Of a DNA stretch of 64,000 bases, positions 1 through 43,166 are shown piece after piece; within the stretch, counting starts at the first letter, position 1, and every line of letters starts with the position of its first letter. Made by a program: the position numbers and the translations under genes. The notes below the pieces were generated by a model. It was not told where the DNA came from. It ran no database searches and was given only the letters and a program-made list of their open reading frames with translations. The DNA lies in assembly GCA_008632985.1 (NCBI GenBank), contig QPGO01000033.1:496001-560000 (forward strand), in the 5' to 3' direction. Source of the stretch: Psammoneis japonica. Lineage: Eukaryota.

Positions 1-919
1 TCAATGTGGAATTCATTTTTTCTTCACACGCCTCCCGACGGGCAAGGGAATCACCAGCCATTGTCACTTTGTTCTTTGTGTTGCCGATTTGGTCCGGAGT
101 GAGGCATTCCTTGACATTGTCTGCCTGAGAGCCCGGGTCGTTAGAATCGCACGGCACAAGAAAGCTGTTGACGAACAGGCACCACTCCTTTTGCGATTGG
201 ACATGGCAAAAAATCTGCATGAACCAGCAGTCGAAGTCATTTTGTTTGCACTGAACGTGACGCGTCACGATTTCGGTGACAAAAAATGCACCATGAAGGT
301 CTTGTGCACGGTCGTCGATCAGTTTTTTGAGATTGTCTTCCTTTAGAAACTGGAAACAAGGCTTGCCGGAAACGGGATCATTTGGGTCATCACCGGCGAC
401 AATCGTGTGGACAAATTCTGCCATGGCTTTGATGTTGCGGTGAAGATTCATGCGGTGCTCTTCTTGTTGAACTGTCTCTCCGGGTGTTTTGGAGAAACAG
501 AGAGCTTCATCCAAATTTTGATGACGAAGGCAGTGTTGACCTTTCAGCGAGTGGGATTTCTTCAGGGACCAACCACGAGTCTTGATGCAAGACCAAACAT
601 CAGGGCATCCAAGAGTTTTCCTGACAATGTTGTTGGCGCGGATGACTTCCGCGACATGTGGAATTCGACGTAACTTTGGCTTGTGGCAAAGGAAGGGAAG
701 AGCAAGAAATTGCAGAGAGGGAGTCCATTTCGTCGACTCCAAAAACTGCTTTTTGGATGCACGTGTTGAAGTCATGCTTTTGAGCTTGGGACCAAACAAT
801 TCCATTCCAAAACCATTGGCAAAATGTTCCATGTCATCAAAATCACATTCATCAGGAAATTGGAAGGAAGGATCAGGGTCGACCTCGTCGTGAGACGGGG
901 TGAAGTCGTTGACCGCCAT
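1..919 (-). pseudogene. Long open frame (306 codons, open past the window edge), unknown protein, apparently hypermutated Tyr->His/Cys
   Basis: Manual translation from ATG at 919: MAVNDFTPSHDEVDPDPSFQFPDECDF...RIPHVAEVIRANNIVRKTLGCPDVWSCIKTRGW...DFDCWFMQIFCHVQSQKEWCLFVNSF...EEKMNSTL, with no stop and no Tyr. It is missing from the ORF track because no stop lies in the window. Confidence 0.7.
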
Positions 920-1684
920 GGCAAGAGGTCAGTTGTGATTCGCGTAGAAAGCACGTGCATGACAACAGCACATGCTCAGGTGGAAAGCAGTTTGGGGAGA
1001 GGATGCACTGTTGTAAATTGCGCAGATGATTGCGCATGTAGAATGAGCACCCGATGCAGGGCAGAGACCCATGCACAGAAATTCCGGGAGGCACTGGAAA
1101 AATGACACTGGAAATGTGCATGGGGGAGACTGGAGCATGCCGAACAGCAGAGGACATGCCAGTCAACACGGTGGGGTGTGTGTGATGTGGAGATGTTAAA
1201 AACCAAAATCAAAGATGTCGGTTCAATGCAAATGCAATGTTGAGATCAAATGGAAATTTACAAAATCCAACAAAAGTGAAAATCGAATTAAATTGTTGAG
1301 AATGATCAAACACAAACAGATGACAAATGTTGGCATAAAACGGACTTAATGAGTTGAGTGTGTTGTTTCAATTTAAACGCGAAAACAACAATCAAAGGTG
1401 CAATGAAGTTGACTGCAATTGGCAACATTCGCACATGGAAAATTGAAAACCACTGCATTGCCGCCTCTGATGTGGATGACTTCTTAGATTTTACAACAGA
1501 AGCCAAGGGAACAAATGTGTCCTCTGACCCAAGCTGTCAAAGGCAATGACAAAAATGGAAGTGACCCTTCAGTTGCGCGCACGACCACAATGAAGAAGCT
1601 CAGCAAAACGACTTTTGATGATGACGATGACGACAACACCCACCATGAAAATGCAACACTTGGTTGCTCTTCCATGTGCAGCAC

Positions 1685-1840
1685 AACAAACAAATGATGC
1701 CAGCAATGAAATTCAATGGACAAAGCCAAATCAACGAAGCACAAACGATGCAGCAAATGGCGCACGATCAAAAACCACAACACTGCACAAAACGACTTCA
1801 CACAACAATGACAAAACCTGCCACAACAACATCAGAGGCA
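1685..1840 (+). repeat. Dispersed repeat, copy 1 (copy 2 at ~4091-4260)
   Basis: Shared blocks caacaaacaaatga..ccagc..tgaaa and gatcaaaaaccacaacactgcaca. Confidence 0.8.
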
Positions 1841-2365
1841 AATTTTCATGAATTGTCTTGAGGTCTGATTGTCACCCAAGTCATGAAGACCTCCCCCGCT
1901 TGCTTTCTGTGGCTGCCCGAAATCATTCTACACAAATCTTCCCATCAACCAAGTTGCTCACTCGCGATGTTGCGTTTGATCTCCATGACCGGCTCCTTGA
2001 AAAACTTGTTGGCTCTTGGCAACCATCCCCTCCCTTGTTGCTCTTCCTTGGTGCCCTGCATCATCTCCTTCTGTGCCCTCCTTTGCCGGGTGCAAGTTGC
2101 TTGGCACAAAGCACTTGAGTCATCTTGTGCACTTTCTCTTCGTTGCGACAGCCTCCTTTTGCATGAGCCCCTTGTTGGCGATGCTCTCAAGCTCGTTCGC
2201 AACACCCATCAGAGCTGAGAGTCACTCTCTTGTCTTGTCCCGCCCCTGTGTCATTGGAAATGGCCACGCTGCTGGTGTGAGTTTTGAATCTTGCACGCCA
2301 TCAATTCTCCAATGAAACTCATGGTGAAGCTTGTCTTTGTGCAGCTTGCCTGTTTTGTCTGGTCA

Positions 2366-2632
2366 TTTTGTGCAAAGCGTGAGTGCGGCGCTCAGAAAAG
2401 CTTCTTCTTTGACATGAGATCTCTTGCCTTGATGATGTCTCCACCAGACTTTTGATCATCGACCATCTGCAACATCAATCCCCCAGCAAAACTTGCAGCA
2501 AAACTTGTTCTTGTGCTGCACACCTGTTTCGTTGCACAAAGCGTGAGTGCGATGCTCAGAAAAGCCTCTTCTTTGACATGATCTCTTGCCTTGATGATGT
2601 CTCTGCCAGCCTTTTGATCATCAGCCATCCAC
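2366..2632 (+). repeat. Diverged direct repeat, ~105-bp unit, ~164-bp spacing
   Basis: caaagcgtgagtgc..ctcagaaaagc.tcttctttgacatga..tctcttgccttgatgatgtctc occurs at ~2373 and ~2537. Confidence 0.9.
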
Positions 2633-3483
2633 TTGCTCAGACTGGTCTGTCTCTGAGGCACAGCTGCAATGATTCTTTGTTCTTTTTTGTGTCGTGTGTT
2701 TGCCTGCACTTGCCGTGGCTGCACTGCTTTGCACGCCATTGCAAGCCGGCCCTCCCTTTTTTGTGTTGTCTCTTGAGTCTTGTGGAGCGATGGTTGTCTT
2801 TTTCCCCTTTTTGTGTTTTTTTGCTTGCCTGAAAAGGGTGCCCACTGTGTTTTTTTTTGCCACAGCACATCTGCACTTGAATTCAAACACACCCTCCATC
2901 CAAAAATGATGGCCATTTCTGCGTGGCTCATGTGCGAGGAAAATGTGCTTTCACCAACCTCTCGAGTCGTCAACCACAATGACCATGATGTGGCATGTTC
3001 GGGTTGATTTCCAAGTCTCATGGAGTGAAAATCACCAACAACGTGTCATGTGACATGACCACAACAATGAACACATGTCATCAGATGCAGCGCATCCCAT
3101 GCTGAAGGCATGTTTTGCTGCCAATTCATTGATCAGCCATCTCAAAATCACTCATGAACTTGCTGCTTGTGTCAAAAGGAAGGAGCCTGTTCTTTTTTTT
3201 GTTGTGTTGGTTGTTGTTTTGTGGTGACCATGTGTGCTTCACAAAAGGCAGAATGAGCATCAACGCCATCACACTTCATTGTCATGGTGGGGTTGAGTTG
3301 TTTGGCAGCTCTTGATGATGCACGCAGTGCAGTCTCACGCAGAGAATCCACGGACTCCTCGTTGCACTGCTTTTGCGGTTCTGCGCTGCTTCACAAAAAA
3401 CATGGGGGATTGGATCTGCAGATCACAGGTGGAAGGGACAAATGCCCCACACACGATTGGTTGGACAAATGCTGCAAACAGAA

Positions 3484-3800
3484 CATTGTGAGTCGACGGC
3501 GAGGATGGGTTTTTTTGTTGAGGGGGAAACAAAAAAAAAATGAAAATTTCACTGAATGATTGACACTTGTCGTGAAGATGGAAATGCAGCACTTTCGATG
3601 GCAGCGCCACATGCAATGTGAAAATGAGCATGTTTCAGTTGGAACGAAACTCAATCATTCAGCGATGCCATTGTGAGTCGACGGTGAGGATGGTTTTTTT
3701 GGGGGAAATGAGACAGAAATGCAGTGCCATCAGCGGAAATGCATGCACAATGTGAAAACAAACATGTTTCAGTTGGAACAAAGTGCAATCATTCAGAGAC
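3484..3800 (+). repeat. Diverged tandem duplication
   Basis: cattgtgagtcgacgg.gaggatgg at 3484 and 3669; caatgtgaaaa..catgtttcagttggaac at ~3614 and ~3748. Confidence 0.85.
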
Positions 3801-4090
3801 AAAGGAGCAATGCTGCCATGTCACTTGGCATGTTGACATTCAAGTCAACAAGTGCACATTGAATGAGGTGCACCTGGGAGCAATGAGTGCAAAACACACA
3901 AATCAGGACAGTGAAAACAAATGAAAATGCTGCACTCCCAATGAGTGAATTTCGACTTCAATCTGGAGGGGGGTCGACCAATGTTTGCACGTGTGTGCAT
4001 GCAATGAGATGGTGGGGTTTGACGACCTGTGACTCATGGCCTTTTCTGCGGGTCTCTGATGAACAAAACACTTGGCTGCTCTTCTCAATG

Positions 4091-4260
4091 CAACAAACAA
4101 ATGACACCAGCTGTGAAAGCCAATGGATGAAGCCAAGCCAACAAAGCACCAGCACAAACAACACGGCCAATGGCATTTGATCAAAAACCACAACACTGCA
4201 CACACAAAACAACTTTGTGCGATGATGACAATGCTTGCCACAGCATCAAAACATTCAGGC
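4091..4260 (+). repeat. Dispersed repeat, copy 2 of 1685-1840
   Basis: Aligned by eye to 1685-1840. Confidence 0.8.
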
Positions 4261-6838
4261 ATGCTCTTCTTGACACAACAAACAAACATGACAGCCAACT
4301 TGCCAAGCCAAATCAATGAAGCAACATCAAAATGGCCAGCAACTGACGCAAAAATTGAGTCCAATGCACTCAAAATTGCCTGCGGGTCCCGGTGGCACAC
4401 AAGAGTTCCCAGCAAGGTGCCCACACACCACATCTCTCATGTTGTTGTTGCTTGCATTGCCACTTCCATGACATGGCCTTCTTTTGCTGGCAAACTGCAG
4501 ATGCAAGGGTGGAGCTGCACACCTTTGCAGTGGTTCCTCTGGGGATCTCGCTTGCATTTTGGGAGACGATGCCATGGGCAATTCCTCTGTCATCACTGTG
4601 ACAGGCAGTGGAAGGAGTGAGAGGTCAAACAAAAGCACCAGTGGTGGTGGGATCCTTTTGACAGCAATGGAGATGCACGTCTTTGAGCAGGGTGTGATGG
4701 GTCGAGCCTCAATGGGAGCTGAAGAGGAAAAACAATGGGTTGGTGCCGATGGTTCCTGAGCCCGTGAAAAGTGCACGACAAACAGCACAACTTGCCAAAC
4801 ACAAATCTCTCAGAGTCTCCATTGTTGAGAGCACAAGTGGTGTCTGGGAGAGCAAGCATCTTGCAAAACAGTGGCAACATCAAAAGAGGTTGTTGTCAGC
4901 AGCCATGGTTCTGTTGTGGCAAAAAATTCTTGCTCTGGAGGTGTCACAGCAACTCAGCATCCAGGTTCCATCTGTGATGATGACTGCAGCATGTTGTGCA
5001 AGGCGGTGTCACAGTTTTTGGCATTGGAGTGTCTGGTAACTCCACTTGGCAGTGGTGTCAGAGAGTGTTGGTGCAATTGGCACTGCAGCTGCTGGCACGG
5101 CAATGGCTGGCGCAGCATCAGGCAGCATCAGGCTTGGACTGATGGGTGGCTGTGTGTCATTTTTCATTGTGGTCTTTGGCACACAATGGAGCATCCAAAA
5201 ATTTAGTCAGCAATGTTGCTTGGAGCAGGCAGCCAACAGCACTGGCACTCACTTGAACTGACACAATTGGCCATGGGTGCAAAAGAGGGGCGCAAAACAT
5301 CTGGCAGCTCCAGCGCATTTAATTTCCTGTGCTTCAATGCCCAGCCTTGACTCTTTGTCCTTTGCCAATGTTTTCATCTTTTTGGAAAACTTGGCGCCAA
5401 TGTTGTGGAGCTTTGTTTTCATCAGCAGCCAGGAACAACAAGTGTGTGCTTGCCTGCCAAGTCAGTCTCTCAAGCAACAAAGCTGTGCTTTCTCTGACCC
5501 TGTCTGTTGGAGATTGGATCAGCATTTGTTTTGTTTCTTTCCATGGCCATTGGTGCTCCATGAGCACCTCAACTTCTTGAAGCACCACCTGCACTTCTTT
5601 CTGGTGAGTTGTGCTGTGCAACATTGTGCTCGCACCATTGTTTTTGTTGCAACGTGCATTGCACAGCATTGAGACCAGGATGGCAGTTCTTCTCAAAGCC
5701 CTCTTTGTCTGCACACTCTTGTTCATGGGCACAAGCACCAGTCTTGCCATGAGATCTGCAGCCACAGGCATTGCACTGCTCTGGCTTTTCACTTGGATCA
5801 TTGTTGTTGGCAGCACTCTTGGGGCAACAGTTCTGGAAGGTTGGCAGAAAGGTTGTGCACTTGAATGAGCCAAAACCCATCACCCATCTGACGTTGTCTT
5901 TTTGTTTGTGCCATTTGCTCTCAGCTGGGAGGGGTGCATGTCAGAAGAACCTTGTCGCCCCCGCACCCACCTCAACAAGAAGAAAAGCAATTTTGTCACA
6001 AAGTGTGGCATCTGCAGAAAAGCCCACACAGGTTGATCTTTGTGAAGCAGGCTCTGCTGGCAGCGGCCAGTTCTCAATGCATGCACTTGAGTGCTTTCTC
6101 AACCCACCTGACAAACCAATGCTTCTGCCGCCATTTGTGTCGCCCCTGAAAAACACATTGGACATGCAAAACACATCATAAGGTCACTCCACTTCTCTCA
6201 ATGAAGTTGACAACAAGCGCGCACACACATTTTTTAACAACTCTTTTTGGTGCGGTTGACCCGCCAACATGGCCAAGAACACAACACTGGCAGAGGAGAG
6301 TGGAAGCAGCAACAATGCCACAACTTCCTTCATGGGAGCCATGTGCCATCCTGATGATCTACCATGGAGCAAATGTCAAATGGTCTGGGAAGGTGCAGTG
6401 TCCCACCCTCCGTCTGCACCCACCAACCTCCACCCACCAATGGGAACCACAAGCCCAACAAAAGACTTGGCTTGGAACCGATGACAACAGACAATCGGAC
6501 AAAGATTTGAGGAGTGCGTGGCAAGACACCTAAAATGGACGCTCTATCAACTGTTTTCTGCTCCTAGTTTCTACTCTCAGGAGACTACATTGGCTCTATC
6601 AGGAATCCATGGTGCTGGTTGTTTTTTTAGTGCCATGACAAACAAAACTCTAATAAACATCAAAATTCGACTCTAGAGGCACAACCATCACGAAACATGC
6701 ACATCAAACACCGCACCGGCACAAATGAAATGATGCAACTGTCGGTTGCCATGCAGAAGGAACAACCGCATCTAGCTAGAGTCAGCCAAGGTCATCATTC
6801 TAAAATCAGCACACTATCGGAAACACCTAAATGGGCTG

Positions 6839-8087
6839 TTACTTCCTATACGCATTCCAGTACACTGTCTCGTGCTGTAAAAAACAAAAACAAGAGCAGT
6901 CCATGATGAAATGAGCTGTACAGTGAGCAAACAAGAAATAAATGCAATCTACTCTACTTCTTACCCTGAAGGCAGTTCCACAATTATGAAAACCAATTGG
7001 TTCTCCGTTCTGGGTTACAACGACGAGACAGTCTTGTTAGAGGGAGGTGTCAGAATTACTGCAACAGCATATTACTCTTTCTTACCTTTGGGTGATGGTG
7101 CTGAGTTACACAGTATGGAATGTCATCATCCGGCCCCATTTCGGCTGGTTCAATGGTAAACTCGACTTCCTTTGAGATTGGCTTCCATTGCTGATCCATT
7201 CGCCTTCGATCACAGTCTTCAATTGTAATGATTTTCTTGTTGTAGCGAGTCATACACAAATCGTGATCCGCAAGTTTCAGTTGAATAAAGTCTCCCACAT
7301 ACCTGACAACAAAGTCTTCGCCTCGTCCACCACCACAGTCCCAGATCCATAACTGTCGCATGTGTTTGCACGACGCTCTTTTGCATGGGGGAGGGAACTG
7401 GTCAAAGTTAAGTTTGGTGCATTGCATGCACTCCAAGCAGTACCTCTGTTCCTTTTTCGATTCCTGCCAGAAATAACTTTTTTGCCAGTGTAACTTGATT
7501 CGAAACTCGTAATCTGGATCAAAGGGACCATATGACGGGGCGCTGGATATGGAGGGTGATTCGGATGGGGACGTGGTTGGGTATTGAGTCGGTTCAAACG
7601 ACGGTGATAAACTCGGTAGATCCGACGGTGCAATTGAGACAGAGGGCGCAAGAGAAGGAGAAGTGCTTGGAAAATCTGAAGGAGCTAGAGAAGGTGAGAG
7701 GGAGGGCTCCAAGCTGGGTTCTGACGAAATGGTAGGTTCAAACGAAGGATGTCCTGATGGTTTCAAAGTCGGCGTGGCGGTTGGTGATGCCGAAGGCTCC
7801 AAAGAAGGAGCTGGAGACGTTGATGGACTTGAACTGGGTTCAGGGCTGATGGTTGGGGAAACGCTCATCGAGGGAGCAGGCGTAATCGGTCCCGGTTGCG
7901 CCCCCGTCCCGGATGCCGAAGAGACCCTACTATTGGTTTGCGGGCCGCTTTTCACGACGACAGCAGTGATGGCAATGATGGCAGCCACTGCAACAACTAC
8001 GGAGGCAATCAGTGGCTTCTTGTTTACCATTCTGAACGGGGACCCGCCCTTTTTAATAGTAGGAACGCTCTCTGAAGGCGGATCCAT
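6839..8087 (-). CDS. Type II membrane protein: N-terminal TM, Ser/Pro/Thr-rich stalk, C-terminal Cys-containing ricin-B-like domain; 3 exons
   Basis: TM IASVVVAVAAIIAITAVVV; PSxxPS repeats; LCM..IEDCD..QQW motif. Two GT-AG introns join ..QHHHPK|NGEPIGFHNCGTAFR|HETVYWNAYRK*. Confidence 0.8.
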
Positions 8088-18744: not shown

Positions 18745-20179
18745 TTAAGCCTCTTGCTTGGACGCTTCCTGTGTCGGAGCCTTAGCGAACCTGTTTAGTA
18801 GCGAGGATATGGGAATGCGAACTTGTGAGGAGAGTCGATTCAATCGTCGCAGCATCTATAACAACACACGAGCAGATATACTTACATCGTAGTGTATGGA
18901 TCGTATTCTTGCCCTTCAATTGCAATCTTGTTGTAGTGCTCCTGGAGCGTCATGGTACCAAACTTCTCGTCAGGGTCGGTTGTTAGCATATCTTCTACAG
19001 CATAGTATTTCCCAATGCGACCAAGTTCTGCAGCGTTTTCCAGACCCTCGTTATTAAATGTGTCTGCCATCCATTGGAGAGAGTTAATGATTGCGTCAAA
19101 GAGCCATAGTGGAGCATAAAAGAAGTTTGGTTCCTTGCCGACGGCAGCGTACAACATCTGTATGAAGCCATGGGAACGTCGTTACAAATGAGGAATGCAA
19201 ATATTCTGCAATGAATGAAAACAAGACGAACCTACCTCTCCTTGTTTCTTCATTGTCAGCGGTTCGTCGGGTCCTCCAAGATTGATAATTTTGTTCTCTC
19301 GCGACTTGTCTACAATGGAATCAATGAGGTACGTCGCCAAATCCGCTTCTGAAATTGGATTGCATCTCGTCACCTCGCCATCCCCAAACATGACAAAGGG
19401 AGCGCCAGCCTGCACGACCTCGAGCTGTCCTGATACAGACTTGAAAAATGCGGTAGGTCGTACAATTGTATAGGTCATGTCCTTTTGCTCCTCAAGTGCG
19501 GCTTCAAATTTGAGCTTAGCCTGTTGGAATTGCAACCACGGGTTCTTGACGCAAAAGGCACTCAACAACACAAAGTGCCGTGCACCGACTTCCCGACCAG
19601 ACTCTAAGCAGTTCAAGGTAGCCTGATAATCAATGGCATACGCATCCTTTTTGATTCCTGATCGGGAGGCCAAGCACGAAATGACAGATTCAATCTTCCC
19701 GTCTTTTTCTGTGATTTCCTCGAAAGTCTATCGGTTAAAAGGCAAACAAAGATTACAATCAACGAATCAGCAAAAGCCTGTACAATTCGACGAAAATGCG
19801 CAAAAATATACCTTTTACCCACCTTTGTCAATTGAGCTGGATCAGTCACGTCGCACTGCACGACGTCTGCGCCTTCGAACGAGGTCCCGTAAAGCATTTT
19901 GCCCTCTGACGAGTTAACCTTATCTAAATCACGCACAAGAGCAATTGTTTTGTAGCCTTGACGAACCGATTCTCTAACGACAGCCTTTCCAATGTATCCC
20001 GTCGCACCCGCAATAACATTGGTTTTGCCCTTTCCCACCGAGGTGGTTTCAATCGATGACATTTTCAGAGCAGTTCTGCTGCCACCCGAGTGTAGAACTC
20101 CAAAGGATGACACCGACGAAGGTCCCAAGGCCATCAGAGACCATACAAGGGTAACGGCCGAACAACAAAGCGATCTCAT
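18745..20179 (-). CDS. DVR: NADPH-dependent divinyl (proto)chlorophyllide 8-vinyl reductase, copy 1; 4 exons
   Basis: [53 protein letters not shown]; final exon [15 protein letters not shown]. Confidence 0.92.
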
Positions 20180-20565: not shown

Positions 20566-21963
20566 CTATACAACTTCTTGAGAAACGGCCATCAATCCCA
20601 GTCTATGAATTGAACGTGAGGCACGGATGGAGTTAGGCAAGCCAAAACAAAACCAAAACCGCGTCATACGTAAAAACTTACACTGAAGTGTACGGGTCAT
20701 ATTCTTGCCCTTCTTTGGCAATCTTGTTAAAGTGCTCTTGTAGTGTTATTGTTCCAAACTTTTCTCGCGAGTCGGTCGTCACCATGTCCTCAACCGCGTA
20801 GAACTTGCCAATTCGTGCGAGCTCGGCAGCATTTTCTAGGCTCTCGTTCTTTAGTACGTCCGCCCACCACTGCAAAGAGTTTATAATGACATCAAAAAGC
20901 CAAATCGGTGCACAAAAATACTTTGGTGTCATGCCGATAGCCTTGTACAGCATCTGTTGAGTAGGAGATTGAAACATCGGATGATAAGTGCAGTTCGAGA
21001 CGTAAACGGGAAAGCAACAACGAACACTAGGCAACATCAAAAACTCACCTCTCCTTGCTTCTTCTTTGTTAGAGGCTCGTCTGGCCCACCCAAGTTGATG
21101 ATTTGATTTTCCCTCGTCTTGTCCCTTATGGAATCAATCAGGTAAGTTGCCAAATCAAACTCAGAAATGGGATTGCATTTCGTCACTTCCCCATTTCCAA
21201 ACATGATAAAGGGTGACCCAGACTGGATCATTTCTAGTTGTCCTGAAACGGATTTGAAAAATGCAGTCGGTCGCACAATGGTCCAAGACAAGTCGTTTTG
21301 AGCCTGTAGCGCAGCCTCGAACTTGAGCTTTGCTCGTTGGAATTGTAGCATCGGGGTCCTGACACAAAATGCACTCAGTAACACAAAATGGCGGGCACCA
21401 GCAGTACGAGCAGACTCCAAGCAGTTTAGTGTTGCTTGATAGTCTACATTATAAGCATCCTTTTTGATTCCGGATCGAGATGCCAAGCACGAAACTATCG
21501 ATTCGATTTCGCCCTCCTTTTGTGCAATCTCTTGAAGAGTCTGCGGCAAGAAATGTGAATGGTTAGGGCGCACTGTACGGATGATCAAAGACTTAAAACG
21601 CACCATGAGGTTTTGTGGAGAACGTACCTTTGTCAGCTGATCTGGATCGGTAACATCACAAGCAACAACATTCGCCCCTTCAAAGAACGAGCCGTACTGC
21701 GCCTTTGCCTCCGACGAAGTTACCTTGCTCACGTCCCTTACGAGAGCAAAAGTTTTATAACCCTGTCGAACAGACTCCTTCACAACAGCCTTTCCAATGT
21801 ATCCCGTAGCACCGGCAATGACGGTTGTCTTTCCGTTTCCAGCACTGAATGCTGACATTTTTAGCGCAGCATTTTTCCGAAACGGAGGAGGAACACTCCC
21901 AAACGCCGACACAACGGATAGAGTCCCTAGAAAAACAAAAATGGGAGAGAAAATAGATCTCAT
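20566..21963 (-). CDS. DVR: NADPH-dependent 8-vinyl reductase, tandem copy 2; 4 exons
   Basis: Same motifs and intron positions as copy 1; VSA-FG plastid presequence; final exon [12 protein letters not shown]. Confidence 0.92.
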
Positions 21964-22851: not shown

Positions 22852-24219
22852 ATGAAGCAGGGCAACGTTGTCGATCCCTGCGTCGCAGTGAACGCTCTTG
22901 GTCTAGAATACCAGGAGTTCTCCTGCCTTTATCCTACGTTGGGGCAAACATATTTCGAGTGAGTACAGCGCCTGATGAAGCTGCGAAGTTTCCGCATTGC
23001 TGTTCGTGTTTCGTTGCGAAATTATCAAGTTTGTTTTCATGTATTCGTGTATGTATTTGTGCATTCAACTCAACGGAAAATTCTACGTACAATTCTACGT
23101 GACCGTCTGCCAGCGGTGTGTTTGCGCTCACGCAATGATGCTTTTTTATTTGCTTTCACAGGGCAGAGAAGGAATATAACCCTCTCCCTGTTCTAAACTG
23201 GATGCGTTCCCATCCTGTGTTTCCGCTTGTGACAGTGGCTCTCTATGCTGCCTTGATCTTTTCGGGACAGAAGCTTATGAAAAAGCAGGATGCCTGGAAG
23301 TGGCGCAAAGCATTGGTATGTTTCGGCTTTTTCTGGATGATCTGTTGTTTGAATCTCGGTGTAGCTCATGTATGAATTCTTTGCTTCACGTGCCAGGCGG
23401 TTTGGAACCTAATGCTTTCTCTATTTTCGACTATTGGGATGTTCCGCACTCTTCCGCAACTTGTGCACAACCTATCAACCATGTCTCTCAGGGATAACCT
23501 ATGCGAGGACCCTCGCAGATCCTACGGCTCTGGTTCCACTGGTCTTTGGGTGCAGCTCTTCATCCTTAGCAAATTTCCGTACGTATGATGTGACCGATCT
23601 ACCTATGAAGTGCTGGATTTTGTTGAGGATTTGTAAAACTCACACTTTTTTGCATGTTGCTTTCCTACCGAAGTGAGCTGTTTGATACTTTCTTCATCGT
23701 GATTCACAAGAAGCCCCTTATTTTCCTTCACTGGTATCATCACATTACGGTTTTGCTCTACTGCTGGCATTCTTATGTGACTCTGTCACCTCCTGGTATT
23801 TTCTTTGTGGTGATGAACTACTCGGTACACGCCAGCATGTACGGGTACTACTTTTTGATGGCCATGAGGTGGCGCCCAAAGTGGTTTAATCCCATCATTA
23901 TCACTGCCTTTCAGATTTCACAAATGATTGTTGGTGTTGTCGTTACGTTGGTCGGATTTTATTATTACCAAAAAGACGAGACGTGCAACATCGAAAGAGA
24001 AAACAACACTGCCGCCTTTCTCATGTACGTTAGAACTGGTGTAGTTCAGTGACACGACTTTAACGCTACTCAATTGTCCTCACATTCTGTTTTTCTTTCC
24101 TATTATAAAGGTATGGGTCCTACTTGTTTTTATTCTTGCAGTTCTTTATTGGGCGTTACTACCAGGGACAGGTCAAAGTTACGCCCCGTTCGCCTTCGAG
24201 GAAAAAGAAAATCGTTTAA
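22852..24219 (+). CDS. ELO/GNS1 fatty-acid elongase (ELOVL6/delta-0 type); multi-exon
   Basis: GSTGLWVQLFILSK, ELFDTFFIVIHKKPLIFLHWYHH, MNYSVHASMYGYY, QISQM; C-terminal KKKIV ER-retrieval signal. Confidence 0.92.
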
Positions 24220-24568: not shown

Positions 24569-25572
24569 CTACTGTTCCTTCGTTTTACCGTTGCTACTGT
24601 CACGTTTCGGCGCCTTAACAAAGTAGCGCTTGACAAAAAAGCTCAAAAACAAGAGAAGGTATGAAAAATACATGGCAAACGCCGCTGTCGTGTTTTCCAT
24701 CTTGGCCCAACAACCGTCGGTTCCTACAAGTCTAAAACTCATGACCGTGACAGCCACTCCGACCACCATTTGACTAATCTGAGCCACAGTGATGAGCATG
24801 GCATTCATCCACTTTGGCTTTTTCTTGACCGCCATGAGATAATAGTAGAAATACATGATGGAATGGACGGCATAATTCATCACGACAAAGAATAAACCAG
24901 AGGGTGCGCTTGTCACGTAGGAATGCCAGCAGTAAAGTAGAACCGTCACGTGATGATACCAATGAAGGAAAATTAACTTCTTCTTGTGAATCACGATGAA
25001 AAACGTATCAATGAGTTCGCTGAAATAAAAAATAGCAAAGAGAAAAATAGAAACAACGCTATGAGTGACGGTTTTGTTTGTTGAAATTCATATGTTCTCA
25101 AGCCTTGCAGTACTACTTACGGGATCTTACTGAGACAAAACAACTGTACCCAGAGTCCTGTCGGTCCAGATCCATAATGAGCTTCGGGATCAAAGCACAG
25201 ATTGTCCGTCAAGGAATAGCTAAACAAGTTATGCGCGAGTTGCGGAAAAGTACGCATAAATCCAATTCCAGAAAAGACAGCGAGACCGAGATTCCAATAC
25301 GCCATGGCTGTCCTCATGTTCAAGGGCTTGCGACTGCTAAAGTAGGCCCGACCCAACACAATCCATAATCCATACAGAGTCACTGCCAAGACGGGAATCC
25401 AGGGGTTCTCTCGCATGTAATCTCTGCTTGTTACCGGATCGAACTTCTTCTCAAAGCTCGTGTATGTTGTCCCCAAGGTGGGATACAAGCATGTAATGTC
25501 TTCGAACGAAACACCCGCAGCATTGGCATGAAGACATTCCAGCTCTGGATGGGAAGGATAAAACGAAGACAT
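24569..25572 (-). CDS. Second ELO/GNS1 elongase, convergent with the first; 2 exons
   Basis: GPTGLWVQLFCLSKIP|ELIDTFF..FLHWYHH, MNYAVHSIMYFYY; C-terminal KTKEQ. Confidence 0.92.
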
Positions 25573-27866: not shown

Positions 27867-28790
27867 TTGAGCTGCATGTAGCGCAGTAAAGGGGCGGGGT
27901 TGATAATGGGGTGAACGACAACTACAGAAAAAAAGAAAGAGCAATGGGATACGAGAGGGCAAAAGAGAAGAAGTGTGAGAATACCTTTCTCACTGTACTG
28001 TACGACGTAAGACTAACGCACGGAAAACGAGCATAAAAAGTTTGGGAGTGCACATGCGGAAGTTTTAACATATGCGCCAGTCAAGTGTGAAAACGAATGA
28101 GAAGCAGAGCATTGGTTGATTTACGGGGAAAAAGATGGGCTTTGTGAAAGATTGCACAGGTGCTTGAAGGAATAGGTGATAAAGAAAATAAATGTTGATA
28201 TGCTTGCGAGTTCTGTCTCTCCACATAAAAGATAGCAAATTCTGTGATACTGTAGATAGTCGAATCCTTTCTTCTAGAACTTCTCTATCAGTTGCGGAGT
28301 AGTGCCTGCTCAAGCATTAATCTCTACTGTATAGCTGCTTTTCACAAAGACGTCAGTGTTGAGCTGCATGTAGGCGGGGTTGATAATGACAACTATAGAA
28401 AAAGGGAATTGACAAGAGGTACTAGAATGCCTTTCTCACTGTACGACGTAGGACTAACGCACGGAAAACGAGCATAAAAGTTGGGGAACGCACATTGGAA
28501 GTTTTACCAGATGCGCCAGTCAAGTACGAAAACGCATGAGTAGTAGAGCAGTGGTTGATTTATGGAAAAAGATGGGATTGCACAGGTGCTTGAAAGAATA
28601 GGTTGAAAAGGGAATAAATGTTTGTATGCTTGCGAGTTCCATCTCTCCACATATCGCACGCTTAGTCATTTACAAGTTTCAGATAGAAGATAGCAAGCTT
28701 GTGATACTGTAAATAATCGAATCTTCTCTTCGACAACTAATATATCGGTTGGGGAGCAATATCCCGTTCGAGCAACTCTCTACAGTATAC
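27867..28790 (+). repeat. Diverged non-coding tandem duplication, ~490-bp period
   Basis: ttgagctgcatgta..ggcggggttgataatg, gactaacgcacggaaaacgagcataaaa and atgcgccagtcaagt all recur about 490 or 430 bp apart. Confidence 0.92.
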
Positions 28791-34808: not shown

Positions 34809-35075
34809 AAGAGTCGTATTGCATTGTAACAGAAGATCAGCGGTAATCATAGACACAATCGGGCGAAGCCTTGTTTGAATAGAGTAGGGGACACGGTGTG
34901 TATAATAAGGCTAGACCCGTAAGAAGCACCACGGTCAATCGTCATGATGAGTTGACACTTTGAAAAATGAAACTGGTCTCCATGACAGCGAGGAGTGTCT
35001 GTTGCATCATAACTCGATTCTCGAGTAAGAGAATCAGTTATTTGGGACCCACTTATTCATTTGTGTGTGAAACAT

Positions 35076-35595
35076 CATGGTGAATAGAGGGCCACTGATA
35101 ATCATGCATTTGAAAAATTACCCTGTCCTGTGGGTCGGGATGAATTCTTGAATCAACAAGTTTCGCTCTTGCTGCTTGGTGTCAATCCGACAGTTTGCCC
35201 CCCTTGCCTGAGGCCAATGCCTGCATTCACAAGAATTTGATCTGTGAGAGTGTTGAGTTTTTCTGTTCCTCCCTCCAATTGAGGAAAGCTCAGGTGGGAG
35301 GGGATGTCATGTGGGCAGGCAGATGACAGAATGATTTCTTTGTGCTGCAGCTCTTCTGCTTGATCTTTTTAATTTGTGGGCAAATTCACAGAGCGAGCTC
35401 AAGAAAGAGGGGAGTTCTCTTTGAGTGGGCTTCTTCTTGCCAAATGATCAAAGCTCTTGCAGAGAAGAGATTTTGACTCTAGAGCACTTTCCTTCAGGTT
35501 GACAAAAGTGGCACAGTTTGAGGCAGCACCACACCAGTTGTCTCCTAGATTGCATCTCTTTTCATGACCCACTCTCACTTGGCACAGTCATCTCA
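35076..35595 (-). pseudogene. Decayed coding segment paralogous to 38271-38745
   Basis: Translations align: LNTLTDQILVNAGIGLRQG vs INTVTGQILVNVGVGLKQG; both contain GPLFTM. Confidence 0.6.
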
Positions 35596-36299
35596 TGTAA
35601 ATTTGAGGTTTTGCATTTTAAAGCCACTCAAGCACCACACCAACTGTTGAGATTGGAGCATCTCTGCCGGCCAGTTGGATTGTTCAAGATGGAAGCAACA
35701 CAAAAGGTCATGGCCCACCTGAAGAGCCAATGCAGTTGGGGTTAGATTGACTTGTGCCACCACCACACCGTTGCTTTGTTGCATTTTGGTTTGTTTTCCT
35801 GCCACAGCACAATGCCAAACATGTCAGGTTTGGCAAGCCAGAAGCAACAAAAAAGTTCCCACACTGTCTTTGCATTTTTGCCTTCTTGCTTTTGCATGTG
35901 GCTTTGCCTTCCCAATTTTGACAGGCTGTGTTGGGCAATTGATTGAGTTGTCAGTGCAACCTGCATGGGCATGTGGGGTGCACAGCCCCAACAAAAATGC
36001 TTGGCTGGACAAGTTGACATTCTTGGCTTGGCTCCTGTTCCCAGACAAATGCACTGCTTGAGAAACTCAAATTTTTTGAGCAACCTGACTCTGTGTGCTT
36101 GTGTGTGTCATGAGTCAATTGAAAGTCCCCAGCAGCAGCAGTCTGGGTGCACTTGAACTTCTTGTTTGACCAATGCCTCTGGGCCTGGCTCTGTGCAAAA
36201 ATCCTGCAATCTCTTCACAGCCTCATTTTGTTTGTTTGTTCTCAGACAAGTTGAGGACATCCTGCAATGGCTGACATACAACAATTTTGTCAAGTGCCT

Positions 36300-37680
36300 T
36301 TGTGTGAGCAGATGTCAGGGGCATTTTGGCTGTGCTGTTTTGCTTAAAAAAAAAAAGAGCTCTTGCCAATTTTTCTCCACACTCTGCTCTCAACCCTGCA
36401 CGCAGCAACCACATTTGAAAAATGTCCTGAGAGTCTCATTGAGCTGGTTGGTGCTTGAGTTTGTTGGTGAAAAACTTTGGGCCACAATGTGATGAGAAAG
36501 TGTTGAGCCAGGATTGGCTCACACTGAGGTGCACATGGTCAAAACATCACATTCATTTTTTTCATGCTGTGGCCATCAAATTTGCCACCAGCACCATTGA
36601 CACAACATTGCCAAACTGTGAGCAAACAAGCCCAGGCTGTTCATTCACAGTGCACCTGTTTTGTGTTGCCTGAAGATCAAATCACAATCTCACAAGTGGG
36701 CACTGAAGCATGAGCAAGTTGGCACAAGCAGAGCTGAAATGGCAAGATTCAGAGAGAACAGCTTGTTGTCACAAAAACACAAAAGTTGCTCTTTTCACAT
36801 GAGTGGAGAACAGCCAAGGATTGCAAAAACAACTTTGTTGTGGCTGCTGAGCAACAAACAAAACAATGAACAAAGCTCTGAACAAGCTTCACATGTTTCA
36901 CAAAACACATTGGAGCATTGATTGGCCAGGTGTTGTTGGCTGTTGTTAGTTTGCAACTGGAGAAACCAGGGAATGGAACTCATTGGCTGCATTTTTCTGC
37001 TTCTGCTGGCAACCACTTCAAAGTTGCTTTGTCACCTGTCTTTGGCAAAAATTGGTCTGTTTGTCTTGCCTGGAACTTGTCAAATGCCATTGCAGGCAGG
37101 TCAAGGTCATTTTGTCAGTTGTGCTGTTTGGCTTGAAGAAAACAAAAAGAGATTTCACCAACTTTTGTTCACACTTTGCTCTTGGCCCCACAGTTTGGGC
37201 AAGCAGAACTTTGGGCCACAACCATTGTTCTTGCTGAACTGCAAGCACAGAGGCCCAGGCTGTTGATTCAAAGTGCATTTCTTTCATGTGCCCAGAGGTC
37301 CAACAACAATCTCATGAGTGAAGTGTGAACAAGTTGGCTCACACATGCAGAGAGCTAAAACTGGCAGATTCAGAAAACATCTTGCTGTCACCAAAAACAC
37401 AAAGCTTGCCCTTTTCACACAAGCAGGTGGGCTGCCAAGGATTGCAAAGACAACTTTCTTGCAGCTGTCCAGCAACAAACAACAATGAACAAAGCTCTGA
37501 ACAAGCCTCACTTCACAAAACACACGCTGGAGCATTGACCAGGTGTTGTTGACAAACCAAAAAATGAAACACATTGGCTGCACATTCCTGCTTTTGCTGG
37601 CAACAACTCATGAGTTTGTGGTTTTTGTTTTTGGCAAGAACAAGAATCAACTTGTTTCTGTTGCCTGGAATCTGGGCACA
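36300..37680 (+). repeat. Diverged tandem duplication (units ~36300-37080 and ~37080-37680)
   Basis: gccaaggattgcaaa.acaacttt, aacaatgaacaaagctctgaacaagc (~36862 and ~37481) and aactttgggccacaa are each present twice. Confidence 0.88.
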
Positions 37681-38270
37681 TGAGAGTGAACTTCATTGGC
37701 CATGTTTTCCACTTTGGGACAGAAAGAAAGCACCAGTGAAAAACAAAAATCAAATCATCTGCACATGCTTCATTTGCTGTCACTTGGGTTGGTCTTGTTT
37801 GTGGCACCATTTGCTGTGCTGTTGTTTTGAGGGAAAAGTGCAGCAACACACATGGTCTCCTCTTTTTTCTCTTGAATTTGTGTCACTTTTTCTCCACAAG
37901 TTCTTCTAGAACATCTTGCATGCTGGGAAGGGGGTCAGCGACATCTTGTCCCATCAAGCACTTGCATTTCATTGCCAAACATTCCAGTGAAGGTGAGCAC
38001 TTCTTTGCCATCTCTTTTGTGTGACTGCTTTGTGCTCTTCTTTTCTCACAAGCAAGAGTGCCATGTTGACAATGGGCTCCCCCATGCCTCACAAGAAACC
38101 TCCAATGCTGGGAGTGCCACCCCCCATGCCTTGTCTCAATGAGTTTCACACTTGACATCATCAGGCAGTTGTTGAATGCATGCAAAGACTCTCCTCTTGT
38201 TGATGTGTCTGCAAGAGTGACACCACCATCTCAAAAACATTTTCAGCAGCCATCCTTTCCACTCTGGGTT

Positions 38271-38745
38271 CATGGTGAAGAGAGGGCCACCAATCATTGT
38301 TGATTTGAAACATCCCAAGATCCTGTTGGTCCAGATGAATTCTTTTTCACTCAACAAGTTGCACTTTCTGCTTGGGTCCTCAATGTGACAGTTTGCCCCC
38401 TTGCTTGAGACCAACACCCACATTCACAAGAATTTGACCTGTGACAGTGTTGATTTGCATTGCTCCTCCACAATCAGAAAGAGCCAATGTGGGAGGAGAG
38501 TTCATGTGGGCAAGCAGATTGCAGAGTTGCTTTGTGCCAGCAACACCTTTTTTGCTCATTCTTTGCAATTTGCGTGAAAGAAAGAGACAATGGGAGTTCT
38601 CTTTAAGTGCACTTCTTCCTGGAAGATCAAAGCTTTGTCAGCTGTTGAGACTCCAGAATGCCCCATGCCAGCACCATGCCAGTTGTCCTTCAGAACAATG
38701 CCTCTCTGTGCATGACCTGTTCTCACTTGGCACTGTCTCATCTCT
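38271..38745 (-). pseudogene. Decayed coding segment paralogous to 35076-35595
   Basis: Shared catggtgaa.agagggccac, gacagtttgccccc, cattcacaagaatttga and tctcacttggcac blocks. Confidence 0.6.
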
Positions 38746-41700
38746 CTTGCTGCAAGCTTGAGGCTTTCTTCCACTGAAGCTGCTCAAGCATTGCCAACCA
38801 TTGAGATTGTGGCTCATCTGCTGACCATGCAATTGGGTCATTCAAGACAGACATGGGTGGAAAGCTCATGTGTGCCCACAGAGCCAGCACAATGAGTGTC
38901 AAACTTGCGTGCAATCTGGTGCTGTCGCTTTGAAGCATTGTTGATCAAACAAGCTGTGTGGCTGTTGGATGCACACAAAATGCACTTGTTGCGTCTTTGC
39001 ACTTGTGGACACAAAAAATGAGGGCTTTGTTGTCAGGTCATTTTTTCCATTGGAGCGCAACATTTCTTCCTTGGTGCTGTTGATGGTGTGTTGTGTGTCC
39101 AAATGCTGCTCTGGCACTGTCAGAAGAGGAGGACTTGCCCTGAGCTGAAACTGGCTTCTTCCAATGGCATCAGCACATGATGAGCAAACTTGTCCCAAAT
39201 GGGATGCATCACATGAAGTGTTTCACTCTCTCCAACAGACATTGGCACACTTGATTGTGGGTTCTTCTGACACCTCCACAATGGAATCTCAATGTGCGTG
39301 CAGACAAGATTGCACTGCTGGCTGGTGTCAAATGTTGCGTGCAGGGGACACTTTGTCAGTGCCTCGCACGTGCCACACTGCCTGGCAAATTTGTTGATCC
39401 AAGGCTGCTCAACAACACTCAACAGCTGCACATCAAAGTGCAAGTCTGTCTTGCAAAGCTTCAGATCCAGCCCTTTAAAAGCACATGCAGGAGAAGTGTG
39501 GGTGGTTTGATGAGGTGTGTTTGAAAAAATTGATTTGCAAGTGGGCCTGTGCTCCAGGTTGATGTCTCACAACATGCACTGCAAAGCCAGCTGGCACAGT
39601 CAAGCTGCAGCAAAGGAATTGCTGCCCACTGATGAGATTGTCCATTGATGTAATCTCAGTCACCCTGATTGATGCGTTTGTCATTGACGTCCTGTGTGGC
39701 AAACCACAATTGCATCCTCTGGTGTTCTCACAACAAAGCATGGAGACAACCACTCCTCCAAAGTTTGCACAAGGAGTGCAACACCAGTCACATTTTCCAT
39801 CCTCTTCATGACTTGCCCCCATCTGCTCTTGACTCTTGGCTTTAAGAGGGAAGATCTTGCGCCCCCAGAAAACACACAATGCAGTGCACAAGCAGCAGCA
39901 GCTTCTCAGGATGATGATGCCACATTGCAGCACCATGTCTTCAATGGTCATTTTTCCATCTTGTGGAACAAGGCTCAGCTCTCATGGCTGCACGCTGCTG
40001 GAAAATGGGCTGTTTTGCCAGTGCCAAGGTTCAGGAGAAACTTGGCACTGGGCTGGGCTGCTGTGATTGGAGACATTGTTTGGCACCAGCAGCAGGACAT
40101 GTGGGACCCTCACATGATGATGCCATCCATGGTGAGCACAATGCAGAAGAAACCAGAAAGAAGTCAGCACAGCATCATGAGGGCCCATGATGTGCAAAAG
40201 CTGAAGTGGGGGCAATTCGCTTGAGGGCTGGTGCCTGTCATGAGACAGGGTGCACTCACTCCTTGATTTGCCAGGCAACAACCTCGCCACTCCTCACTCA
40301 ACACATTGGCAGAGAAATTGGTGGCCACAGTCAAACAAATGTCCAAGTCAAGCACTCAGGAGGCTCAAAAGTTTGCCACCAGAGGCACACACCGATGCTG
40401 TCACTTGTTTTGGCACCAATCTTTTAGCTGGCTGTTGTTGTTGTGCACTCCTGCTGCCACACCACAAGTGCCACTGGGGGAGTCAGTGATTTTGGCTCAT
40501 TGCTGGCTGGGGTTGCTGGGCACCAGAAGTGTGGCAACAATCAAAACACTGATTTTGGTTTGTTCATGCCTTTCTGGCACTTGCACTTGCTGAATCCTTT
40601 TCCATTGGGTGTCAAAGGCAAAGACCATTCCTGGCTGTTGACAGCACTGCACACATGCGCACAGTTTTCCGCAGCTTGTGTTGTGCCCTGTGGCAGCATT
40701 TTGTTTGTCACAAAAGGTGCTTGGCTCACTTTCAGTTTTTGGCGGTTGTGTTCTGCATGGCATCTTTGCTGGTGCACGGTGCACATGCTCTGACGAAAGT
40801 TGGGGGTCAACTTGGTTTTGACTGAAATGAGCTGGTGAGAGCTGTTCTCCTGGTTTGCTGGGTGCTGTGCTCTGTTTCCAACAACACTGGAGGAGTTGTC
40901 ATCATGAGGAGCCAAAACTCTGTGCTGTGCACAACAATGCACACACTGCCACCATGAATTGGCTGAGATGAGCCACTGGACAGATCTCATGTTGTGTCAT
41001 GACAACAAGGTGCAAATCCTGCAAACCAAAATAAAAGAAAAAATGGTCACCAAAATTTGAGTTGAGTTTTCTAGCATGTTGGTTCCTCCTTTGGCAGGAA
41101 CTCTGGACATGAAGTGAGGAGGCGTGGAGCCCAGGTTGGATCATGTCATCATGATGCACATGAGCATTGAATTTTAGAGCTTGCCCCTCAACTGGTCACC
41201 TGCCATTTTCAAAAGTGTTGTGCTGTCAAATTAAAATGTCAAACACACTCAATGGGGCATCAAAACAAAATGTGCTCAGTTTTGAACATGTTGCAATCAT
41301 GTCCAAGCCAGTGGCTGCTGTTGACACACAAATTGTTTGTTGCACATGGCCTGGTGCTCTCCTCAGCAAAGTGGCAGCTGCTTGATTTCTTCTGTGGATG
41401 TTCCACTCTGCTGTTGCAGTGCACAATTCCGTGGGAGAGGGATCTGGAGTTGCTGTCTCCTTTGCAGTCAAATGGGCTGGAGTCCACTGTGGCAAAGCAC
41501 CCCTTGACATTGCACAGCACATCAAGCAGGAACAGTGCAGGGCAACTGTGCCAACGTGCTCTTCTTGTCACAGTCAAGCCACTTGCAGGCCTTCTTGATG
41601 TCTGGAACATCTGGTCCAATGTTGTGAGTGAGACAAAACAAAACAGCCCTGGTGGCTTGTTTTGGGCAGAAAAGTTTGCTTCTGCTTGGCCCCTTTCCTC

Positions 41701-43166
41701 AGGGCTTGTTCTTCTTTGGCTAAGCACAAAACAAAAGATGTTGATTGAGCAACATCCTGGCTGCATGAAAATGGAGATGATGAGTGCACCTTCACACAAG
41801 AATCTGAAAGGGCCACAACAATGACCCCACCCAGCTTCAAACATGTTGCCAAGATTGGAGAGCACCTTCTAACTTTGACATTGGCAAGAACAGCCTTGTC
41901 AGTTATGAAGAAAAATTGCCATGGCACTGTGCCAGTTTGCCAGTGGCTGGCAAAGCAGCTCATGTTTTTGACGGAGAAAACACTGAGATCATGCCTGATG
42001 CACCCCAGCTTTGCAAGGCTGTGGCAGTGCATGGGGGCATGTGTGTTGCCCAAACTTGATGCAAGCAGCTGCAAGAGCACAGCCTCTTGCTTTTGTGCAC
42101 TGACAACATGTCACTTGTGAATGTTGGTGCTGACAATGACCTCCTCTTCAAATTCTGTGGTTCTCCTCCTTTGATGGAAATGGCTCGGCTGATTTGCTCC
42201 AGCTTTGGGCAGGACCTTGCAGCACTGGACTGTGACAGAATGATTTTTGATCATCATGTGCTGCACAAAAGTCATGTGCATTTTTGCACATGCACTCTTT
42301 TGCAAAATTGTTGCACTCATCCTGTTTTGTGAAGCTGGCAGAATTTCACTTTGGCCACTCTTTTGAGAACAAGATTGGACTGGTCCCTTTTTTAGTGTCA
42401 GAAGAACAAAGCTGCTCTGAGCACCACCAGAAATGATGCACTTCAGGCATGTGGGTGCTTGAAGTTGATCATGGAATTGCCTCTTTTTCTGTTGGCAATC
42501 ATCAGCTTGCTCACACTGCCTGGTGATTTCTTTGACTTCTTGTCACAGAGCTCACCACATGCACAGAGCTCTCTTGGCAATGTCACATGGCAGCACCTCA
42601 CCCAGGCAGGCACATGTTGGCTCTGAAGGTTTGCTGTGCTCTTCAAGAGAGACTTCCCACCATGCAAACAACTGCATTTTGCATTTTTGTCAGTGTGCAC
42701 TGCCAGCACCCACAGCCCACAACTGCTTGTGGAAACTGCAACTGAGCCACAAGAAGCCACCAGATTGGCAGCGTTTCTGTGATTTGGAAGGAAGGGGTGC
42801 CTTTGACTTCTCTGCTTTTTTTTTGCCAGCACCTGAAGGGTCACCCACTGTAGCATGCAGCTGCATGATGTAAGTGCTGTGGCCCTCACTTGCTTGCCCC
42901 CTGCTTGGTGTCGATGGTGCTTGACGCTTCTGATTTCTGCCGCAAATTTTTGGCGCGAGGCGGCGGGCGAGAAATCCTCAGACAGCAGATGCGAGTGCGA
43001 GATGAGCGTCTGCAGTGTCGTTGAAAGCAGCTCACTGTTGATGCCAGAGCCTGAGCTCTTAAACTACGGCATATGACTTGAGTGCTGCATATAGAAGGGA
43101 TTGCTTCAGTACAAAATCTCTACCAGCTGAAATCGTTATAGAAATATAGTCTCACCGGTGGTTCTC

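Follow-up and report, generated by a model that had tools for sequence, protein, structure and literature searches.

A tyrosine-free reading frame in TA-depleted DNA, probably a copy of a multi-copy element recoded by TpA to CpA/TpG mutation

How does a reading frame of 306 codons come to encode no tyrosine at all? The question is raised by the left end of a 64,000-nucleotide stretch of contig QPGO01000033.1 (assembly GCA_008632985.1, positions 496,001 to 560,000), hereafter the window, where such an open reading frame (ORF) runs on the minus strand. The original prediction, made from the letters alone, had interpreted it as a real gene recoded by loss of TA dinucleotides ahead of any CpG decay. 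This interpretation was supported, since the ORF has 49 homologs that carry Tyr and has itself Cys, His, His and Cys at four columns where the family conserves Tyr. The ORF is probably a copy of a multi-copy element that was recoded by a mutational process turning TpA into CpA or TpG.

The tyrosine-free frame and its family

The uninterrupted frame was confirmed. All 306 codons are open at 2..919, with an ATG at 917-919 and an in-frame stop just upstream (stop-to-stop span 2..928), and the frame exits at the left edge, its C-terminus lying beyond the window start. It has no Tyr and no TAY codon, 14 Cys (4.6%) and 13 His (4.2%). The claimed His/Cys excess was clear for Cys (family about 2%) and only modest for His (family about 3%). 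Only three TA dinucleotides occur in the 919 nt (observed/expected ratio, o/e, 0.05): none at codon positions 1-2, two at positions 2-3 and one across codons. CG was plentiful, as had been stated, with 46 instances (o/e 0.89), and is therefore nearly intact. The ORF's own 1-kb segment (1-1000) had o/e values of 0.06 for TA, 1.57 for CA, 1.28 for TG and 0.86 for CG. In six Pfam-supported or long ORFs from the same window, TA ranged from 30 to 42 per kb (o/e 0.49-0.67) and the Tyr content was 1.9-4.7%; at such rates the ORF should have some 30 TA and some 10 Tyr. Its composition is far outside the local norm.

The open frame alone is weak evidence for a gene. TA-less DNA contains no TAA or TAG, and TA to CA/TG changes cannot create stops: they turn TAA and TAG into CAA, CAG, TGG or TGA and never make a new stop elsewhere. 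The claim that TpA transitions rarely create stops could therefore be strengthened, as none can arise in frame in this way. That the frame would stay open during recoding also held, although its openness proves little for the same reason. In dinucleotide-preserving shuffles, frames of at least 306 codons appeared in 5 out of 300 shuffles of the TA-less domain that includes the ORF (domain A), in 16 out of 300 of a second such domain (domain B) and in 0 out of 300 of ordinary DNA, and both strands of the domains contained many frames of 150-217 codons. A chance open frame in stop-poor DNA, with no gene behind it, would fit these counts. It is already refuted by the homologs, and we give it next to no credence: a phmmer search with the unaltered ORF against 1.84 billion representatives recovered 49 homologs at E<=1e-3, including 23 at E<=1e-10, the best at 1.9e-33 with 33% identity, and a profile built from the 49 homologs without the query scored the ORF at 195 bits (independent E-value 5.9e-61), with no second match within the window. 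Because of the homologs and the query-free profile score, the ORF is, judged by its relatives, truly coding and a real gene copy. A candidate second copy of the family at 41761-42012 (tblastn with the homolog P0274, E 0.001) was rejected, as the family profile gave no support for it.

The family could not be named. A word-indexed protein search with the ORF gave no match, Pfam recognised no family in the ORF and none in the region that 14 searched homologs share with it, PHROGs gave no match for 24 family members, and there was no hit among PDB sequences and no usable match in the Protein Atlas. A tblastn search of a phage collection found no match, and a viral contig collection contained no relative of the homologs P0241, P0242, P0250 or P0246. 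The clusters of 20 homologs were all nameless or 'hypothetical'; 19 were of metagenome type (JGI/IMG, ENA, Logan) and one (P0277) was an NCBI record. An AlphaFold2 (AF2) model of the ORF, computed with the family alignment given, reached a predicted local distance difference test score (pLDDT) of 82 and a predicted template modelling score (pTM) of 0.78. Foldseek against PDB and BFVD gave it no match with E<=1e-3, and VIA-align reached a Z of 3.8 at best. The ORF retains the invariant residues R115 and G116 and most of the near-invariant ones, namely N96, L103, G104, W117, L131, M166, K200 and W232.

All 49 homologs contain Tyr. Homologs that are Tyr-free and carry His or Cys at the same positions, which the original prediction had named beforehand as evidence against it, were not found. 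The homolog Tyr cells of the alignment fell on His or Cys of the ORF in 215 of 391 cases (0.55), more than for any other of the 50 sequences (median 0.089), and in 125 of 217 when only the first 23 homologs were counted. Four of the columns concerned, codons 111, 133, 171 and 298, are conserved for Tyr in the family (Table 1). In addition, C105 and C231 occupy columns in which Tyr is the commonest residue (at 105 tied with Phe), and H88 and H129 occupy columns with 28-33% Tyr, that of H129 being a Phe/Tyr column. Among the positions that had been proposed as Tyr-like from the translation, C105, C111, H133 and C231 are thus upheld and H129 falls in its Phe/Tyr column, whereas C238 lies in a column dominated by Arg, and C130, H239 and C247 lie in variable columns. 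Since both CAY and TGY occur at Tyr columns, both strands must have been hit. Besides C238, codon 243 is CAA where the family consensus is Arg, and codon 134 likewise encodes Gln in an Arg column (Table 1). Some of the His, Gln and Cys of the ORF therefore derive from Arg, and CpG decay has begun in this copy.

Four homologs, P0246, P0252, P0260 and P0274, came next below the ORF among the 50 sequences, with Tyr to His/Cys shares of 0.26-0.43. At conserved Tyr columns they carry C, Y, C, Y (P0246), H, C, Y (P0252), H, H, Y, Y (P0260) and Y, H, H (P0274). A search for metagenome loci returned none for the ORF itself and one for P0246, a contig (L001) that encodes at 616-1056 a variant of P0246 with 88% identity and 16 substitutions. 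Among these were Y81C, Y121C, Y125C, R83C and R127H, as well as C104H, which exchanges the CA and TG alternatives at a conserved Tyr column. In this contig, the sole family locus for which DNA was at hand, TA o/e was 0.18 over the gene and 0.40 upstream of it. From these sequences, the same process seems to have struck the family in at least one other genome.

TA-less domains around the frame

The ORF lies at the outer end of domain A, one of two kilobase-scale domains in which TA is nearly absent (Table 1), compared with a TA o/e of 0.63 in the remaining 49.5 kb of the window. Domain A includes a stretch of 3107 nt, 1930-5036, with no TA at all. In the 1-kb segments over 1001-6000, o/e values ranged over 0-0.15 for TA, 1.45-2.22 for CA and 1.62-2.22 for TG, and over 36001-43000, in domain B, they were 0.01-0.10, 1.74-2.15 and 1.74-1.94, respectively. 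The right edge of domain B at 43060 is sharp, with normal TA density within a few bases, and CG returns at about 42912. TA is absent in all three codon phases, in non-coding flanks and in about 14 kb with no recognisable gene. The loss of Tyr is a DNA-level effect and not a property of the protein.

These observations also bear on whether the mRNA might be repaired. His (CAY) to Tyr (UAY) editing occurs in plant organelles, and C to U together with G to A editing could in principle restore Tyr from the His and Cys codons. Such editing would have to include a G to A change for every Cys, and it would leave the missing TA in the other codon phases, the flanks and the gene-less DNA unaccounted for. 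We consider it highly improbable.

CG is also depleted in the domain interiors. From the window start, CG o/e fell per kilobase from 0.86 to 0.62, 0.43, 0.48, 0.24 and 0.18, the ORF being at the CG-rich end; it was 0.18-0.48 over 2001-6000 and 0.02-0.20 over 35001-43000, a CG deficit accompanied by an excess of TG and CA. The proposed order of events, TA loss before CpG decay, agrees with the contrast between the ORF (CG o/e 0.89) and the domain interiors (0.11-0.45). The share of pyrimidine-purine (Y-R) dinucleotides was 0.247 in domain A, 0.240 in domain B and 0.241 in the rest of the window, and G+C was 0.47 in the domains as in the rest. TA and CG made up 4.4% and 5.4% of the steps in the rest of the window, and CA plus TG rose from 14.3% there to 21.8-23.1% in the domains. 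This balance is what TA to CA/TG and CG to CA/TG transitions acting on ordinary DNA predict. The two losses are separable in time, and together they collapse the Y-R steps to CA and TG. Because this collapse leaves G+C unchanged, GC-based screens will miss such domains.

The process behind this pattern would consist of two steps. TpA would be converted to CpA or TpG (A to G on either strand) across the whole domain, ORF included, so that TAY (Tyr) was turned into CAY (His) or TGY (Cys), with NTA codons and cross-codon TA steps disappearing too; the frame would have stayed open throughout, as the change makes no stop and removes TAA and TAG. The mutator may be of the type of a deaminase producing inosine (read as G) from A, with TpA as its target in DNA that is silenced, repeated or foreign. 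A slower second process, CpG to TpG/CpA, would most simply be deamination of 5-methylcytosine in silenced DNA. It would have emptied the older domain interiors of CG and only begun in the ORF, whose unit may be the youngest part of domain A. Deeper in the domains frames are broken, probably by CpG decay, which can create stops (CGA to TGA). After this recoding the protein has probably lost its function.

The TA that survive in the two domains are unevenly distributed over contexts. A total of 35 out of 44 are in TTA/TAA contexts (TTAA 12, CTAA 12, GTAA 8, ATAA 3), TTAA constituting 27% of the survivors and 4% of TA in ordinary DNA. None of the 44 is in ATAT, ATAG or GTAC, which together account for 27% of TA in ordinary DNA, and all three TA of the ORF belong to the surviving context class. 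This bias suggests a preference of the mutator for the 3′ neighbour, or later regeneration of TA; as a preference, the survivors would suggest the order TAT>TAC>TAG>TAA.

Inside the domains, diverged repeats had a CA-versus-TG double difference at 25 of 235 aligned Y-R columns, and four pairs outside had it at 1 of 173. In domain B, two diverged copies of a direct repeat at 35075-35455 and 38270-38634 (72% identical) could be the terminal repeats of an element of about 3.7 kb, and the domain also has a tandem duplication of about 620 bp (36287-37017 and 37077-37608). Domains A and B had no homology to each other in blastn or in word matching after collapse to purines and pyrimidines. A read-through Pfam search of six frames of both domains, with X at stops, gave no credible family; the sole row was NRDE-2 (E 0.008, 15.7 bits, cut-off 34).

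Several features were noted next to the domains or in the ordinary DNA between them. A PD-(D/E)XK nuclease-family ORF with normal TA content adjoins the right edge of domain B (43500-44543, plus strand, PF12705, E 4e-17). Coding-looking tandem diverged copies, 70-74% identical, are located at 18880-20035 and 20676-21840 and served as controls for the substitution pattern. A tandem duplication of about 440 bp at 27949-28757 is 74-98% identical by segment and has normal TA content, and an inverted repeat is formed by 23672-23862 and 24831-25021.

Copy number and the timing of TA loss

Contigs of one public run were aligned on window positions 1-8000, and variants among copies are reported for 40 of the 182 variant places. 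Summed contig depth over 1-1335 was 1716-4099, compared with 60-69 for single-copy contigs, which is 25-70 times the single-copy depth, and 6-13 distinct contigs overlap at single places. The right end of the repeat unit is marked by loose contig ends at 1438/1440 and by a unique contig from 1473. The ORF is therefore part of a repeat with dozens of nearly identical copies. At position 958, the window has C and every contig of the run that covers it has G (depth 1897/1897, 8 contigs).

The 182 variant places comprise 139 transitions and 43 transversions. Among the 40 listed, seven have CA/TG in the window and TA in other copies, ten have CA/TG in the window and CG in other copies, and five have CG in the window and TG/CA in other copies. 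The common variants in the ORF among those listed are at 552, 800 and 875; none restores a TA and two of the three are synonymous. Variants of much lower depth than these three were listed elsewhere in 1-8000. Most other copies retain CG at positions 552 and 875, and codon 123 (position 552) is CGC there and CAC here. In the moderately repeated part, 1870-4800, copies differ by TA and CA/TG.

Independent hits would leave about half of the approximately 30 TA sites differing between CA and TG, so the copies appear, on the 40 of 182 variants listed, to share their CA/TG outcomes. Either TA loss therefore predates amplification or the copies were homogenised. The description as a recently hit gene needs qualifying on this account, and dozens of copies with shared outcomes point to a member of a repeat family rather than an ordinary host gene.

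The same data allow another history, in which an element without any TA became immune to the mutator by exhaustion of its target and kept amplifying, with a putative Tyr-free protein that is still made and still works. The depth of the ORF unit, the absence of a restored TA at the three listed variants and their mostly synonymous nature are consistent with this, as are copies that spread after TA loss, the retained CG and intact frame, the retention of R115, G116 and most near-invariant residues, and the confident fold predicted with the family alignment. However, four near-invariant Tyr and two conserved Arg have been replaced, which is usually disabling, and an intact frame needs no selection when TA to CA/TG changes cannot break it. 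The amplification could also have been passive, through segmental or tandem duplication or mobilisation in trans, or be imitated by gene conversion, and TA-bearing copies may exist, as only 40 of 182 variants were listed. We regard a still-working, escaped element as rather unlikely compared with a recoded copy of a multi-copy element.

The alignments also speak to the quality of the sequence. Systematic miscalls at modified motifs occur in some long-read chemistries, and modified TA steps might have been misread as CA or TG; the library type of the sole run with the stretch is unrecorded. Against this, independent contigs (unitigs) reproduce the TA-less stretches 1473-1955, 3430-3774, 3806-4033 and 4526-6161 with no differences, so the TA-less sequence is not an assembler artefact. 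The last of these, at depth 64, indicates that single-copy, non-coding DNA is affected as well. Unrelated metagenome assemblies show Tyr to Cys/His changes in the same family, the concurrent loss of CG would require a second artefact, and in the alga Bigelowiella natans changes of the same type were, in the preprint discussed below, called as heritable mutations from Illumina reads. An artefact of base calling is very improbable.

Comparison with known systems

So far one report, a 2026 preprint on a single alga, describes a dinucleotide-specific A to G mutator on nuclear DNA, and a literature search found no other description of TpA to CpA/TpG hypermutation of nuclear DNA. According to that preprint (Mettrop et al., bioRxiv 10.64898/2026.01.13.699255), the mutation rate of two integrated viral regions in mutation-accumulation lines of B. 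natans is about 6e-7 per site and generation, some 1000-fold above background; 230 of 231 de novo mutations in the viral inserts were A to G or T to C, all of those at TpA; the genome has 324 TpA-depleted coding sequences (CDS) and 124 clusters low in TpA and high in CpA+TpG, for the most part unannotated; and the proposed agent is an ADAT2-like adenine deaminase with DNA as its substrate. The window resembles what the preprint describes in target and products (TA to CA/TG on both strands), in the kilobase scale of the domains, in an unannotated TpA-depleted 'CDS' and in clusters of TpA-low, CpA+TpG-high windows. Domains A (1001-6000) and B (36001-43000) would both be classed as clusters by its rule. 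It differs in the near-total depletion (o/e 0.04-0.05, compared with a Rho of 0.45 given for the active nucleocytoplasmic large DNA virus insert of B. natans), in the additional loss of CpG from domain interiors, in a target that is a high-copy repeat and not a recognisable virus, and in the demonstrated recoding of Tyr to His/Cys. The organism is also probably another one, of a poorly sampled lineage: two conserved genes of the window reach at best 64% and 74% identity to known proteins, with no self or near-self match, and ten window ORFs had no exact counterpart, in a collection that includes transcriptomes and a proteome of B. natans. Gene structure and composition would be compatible with B. 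natans, whose G+C is 45% and whose exons and introns average 159 and 184 bp (PMC12730881, Table 1), the window having 47% G+C and introns of 58-194 nt.

Other systems explain the domains less well. Fungal repeat-induced point mutation (RIP) likewise produces transitions at one dinucleotide in DNA that is repeated or foreign, and sharply bounded domains of aberrant composition. Unlike here, it changes C to T at CpA and thereby creates TpA, AT enrichment and many stops, whereas in the window TpA is destroyed, G+C is unchanged at 0.47 and no stops arise. Fungal RIP was rejected as having the opposite sign (TA o/e 0.04-0.05, CA and TG 1.7-1.9). Decay of methylated CpG, as in vertebrates, plants and methylated transposons, matches the domain interiors (CG o/e 0.11-0.45 with TG/CA excess) and the 15 exchanges between CG and TG/CA among the 40 of 182 copy variants listed. 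It cannot explain the loss of TA and is nearly absent from the ORF. ADAR and APOBEC enzymes, used against selfish nucleic acids such as retroelements and viruses, also leave clusters of deaminase-type transitions, and the A that ADAR edits is preferably one with a 5′ U before it (bioRxiv 10.64898/2026.01.13.699255, Discussion). They act on RNA or single-stranded cDNA, with heritable effect only via reverse transcription, whereas the single-copy non-coding DNA at 4526-6161 is affected here.

Several points weigh against a recoded copy of a multi-copy element as the explanation. Pfam, PHROG, PDB sequences, fold comparison and, for four family members, viral contigs gave no domain or relative of viral or transposon type. 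The direction of change, from TA to CA/TG, is read from end states, no mutation having been seen to happen. Since dozens of TA-free copies are nearly identical, the one in the window may have inherited a sequence already free of TA, without ever having been hit. The ORF's own 1-kb segment, with its CA of 1.57 and TG of 1.28, probably misses the CpA+TpG cut-off of 1.52 in the cluster rule of the B. natans preprint. The main text of that preprint has no mention of CpG or tyrosine, and the CG-less interiors are outside the known description. The platform of the assembly is unrecorded, which makes a base-calling artefact formally possible, at the very slight probability given above.

With a recoded element as the preferred explanation, the locus provides the protein-level end state of such mutation, a real gene with every Tyr rewritten to His or Cys and its frame open; annotators will call such scars odd Cys/His-rich genes. 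It also points to a possible neighbour preference of the mutator, with surviving TA mostly in TTA/TAA contexts. A second lineage is probably added to the one alga, and activity of the process in other genomes is hinted at, as is continued spreading of the TA-free repeat. More tentatively, TpA hypermutation might extend beyond Bigelowiella as a widespread defence of marine protists, with the ORF unit having escaped the mutator and possibly encoding a working Tyr-free protein; we think this combination possible though doubtful. If the source is not Bigelowiella, the spread of the defence is testable by dinucleotide scans and checks of Tyr columns.

Table 1. Coordinates of the ORF, its informative codons, the repeat unit and the TA-less domains in the window
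Feature	Position	Strand	Description
Tyr-free ORF, N-terminal part, uncharacterised protein family	2..919	-	frame, composition, phmmer, family profile, AF2
Codon 111, TGC (Cys)	587..589	-	conserved Tyr column, Tyr in 35/45 homologs
Codon 133, CAT (His)	521..523	-	conserved Tyr column, Tyr in 36/44 homologs
Codon 134, CAA (Gln)	518-520	-	column Arg in at least 90% of 24 rows of the family alignment
Codon 171, CAC (His)	407..409	-	conserved Tyr column, Tyr in 37/41 homologs
Codon 298, TGT (Cys)	26..28	-	conserved Tyr column, Tyr in 24/26 homologs
High-copy repeat unit, ORF and about 520 nt upstream	1..1440		contig depth; right end approximate, left end outside the window
TA-less domain A	1..6180		19 TA (o/e 0.04), CG o/e 0.45, decreasing inward, CA 1.73, TG 1.77
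TA-less and CG-less domain B	35120..43060		26 TA (o/e 0.05), 48 CG (o/e 0.11), CA 1.89, TG 1.81

Among the ordinary genes of the window, a NAD(P) transhydrogenase gene occupies 53541-57137 on the minus strand, with about seven exons, one of them 1.8 kb long, and gaps of 58-194 nt. Two of its tblastn segments meet with an end at 56699 and a start at 56682, a change of frame within about 17 nt for which a very short intron or a frameshift could account. The best protein match of the transhydrogenase ORF was 64% identical (from a pedinellid, over 57% of the query), and that of an E1 dehydrogenase was 74% identical, the named matches of the latter being diatoms at 67-71%.

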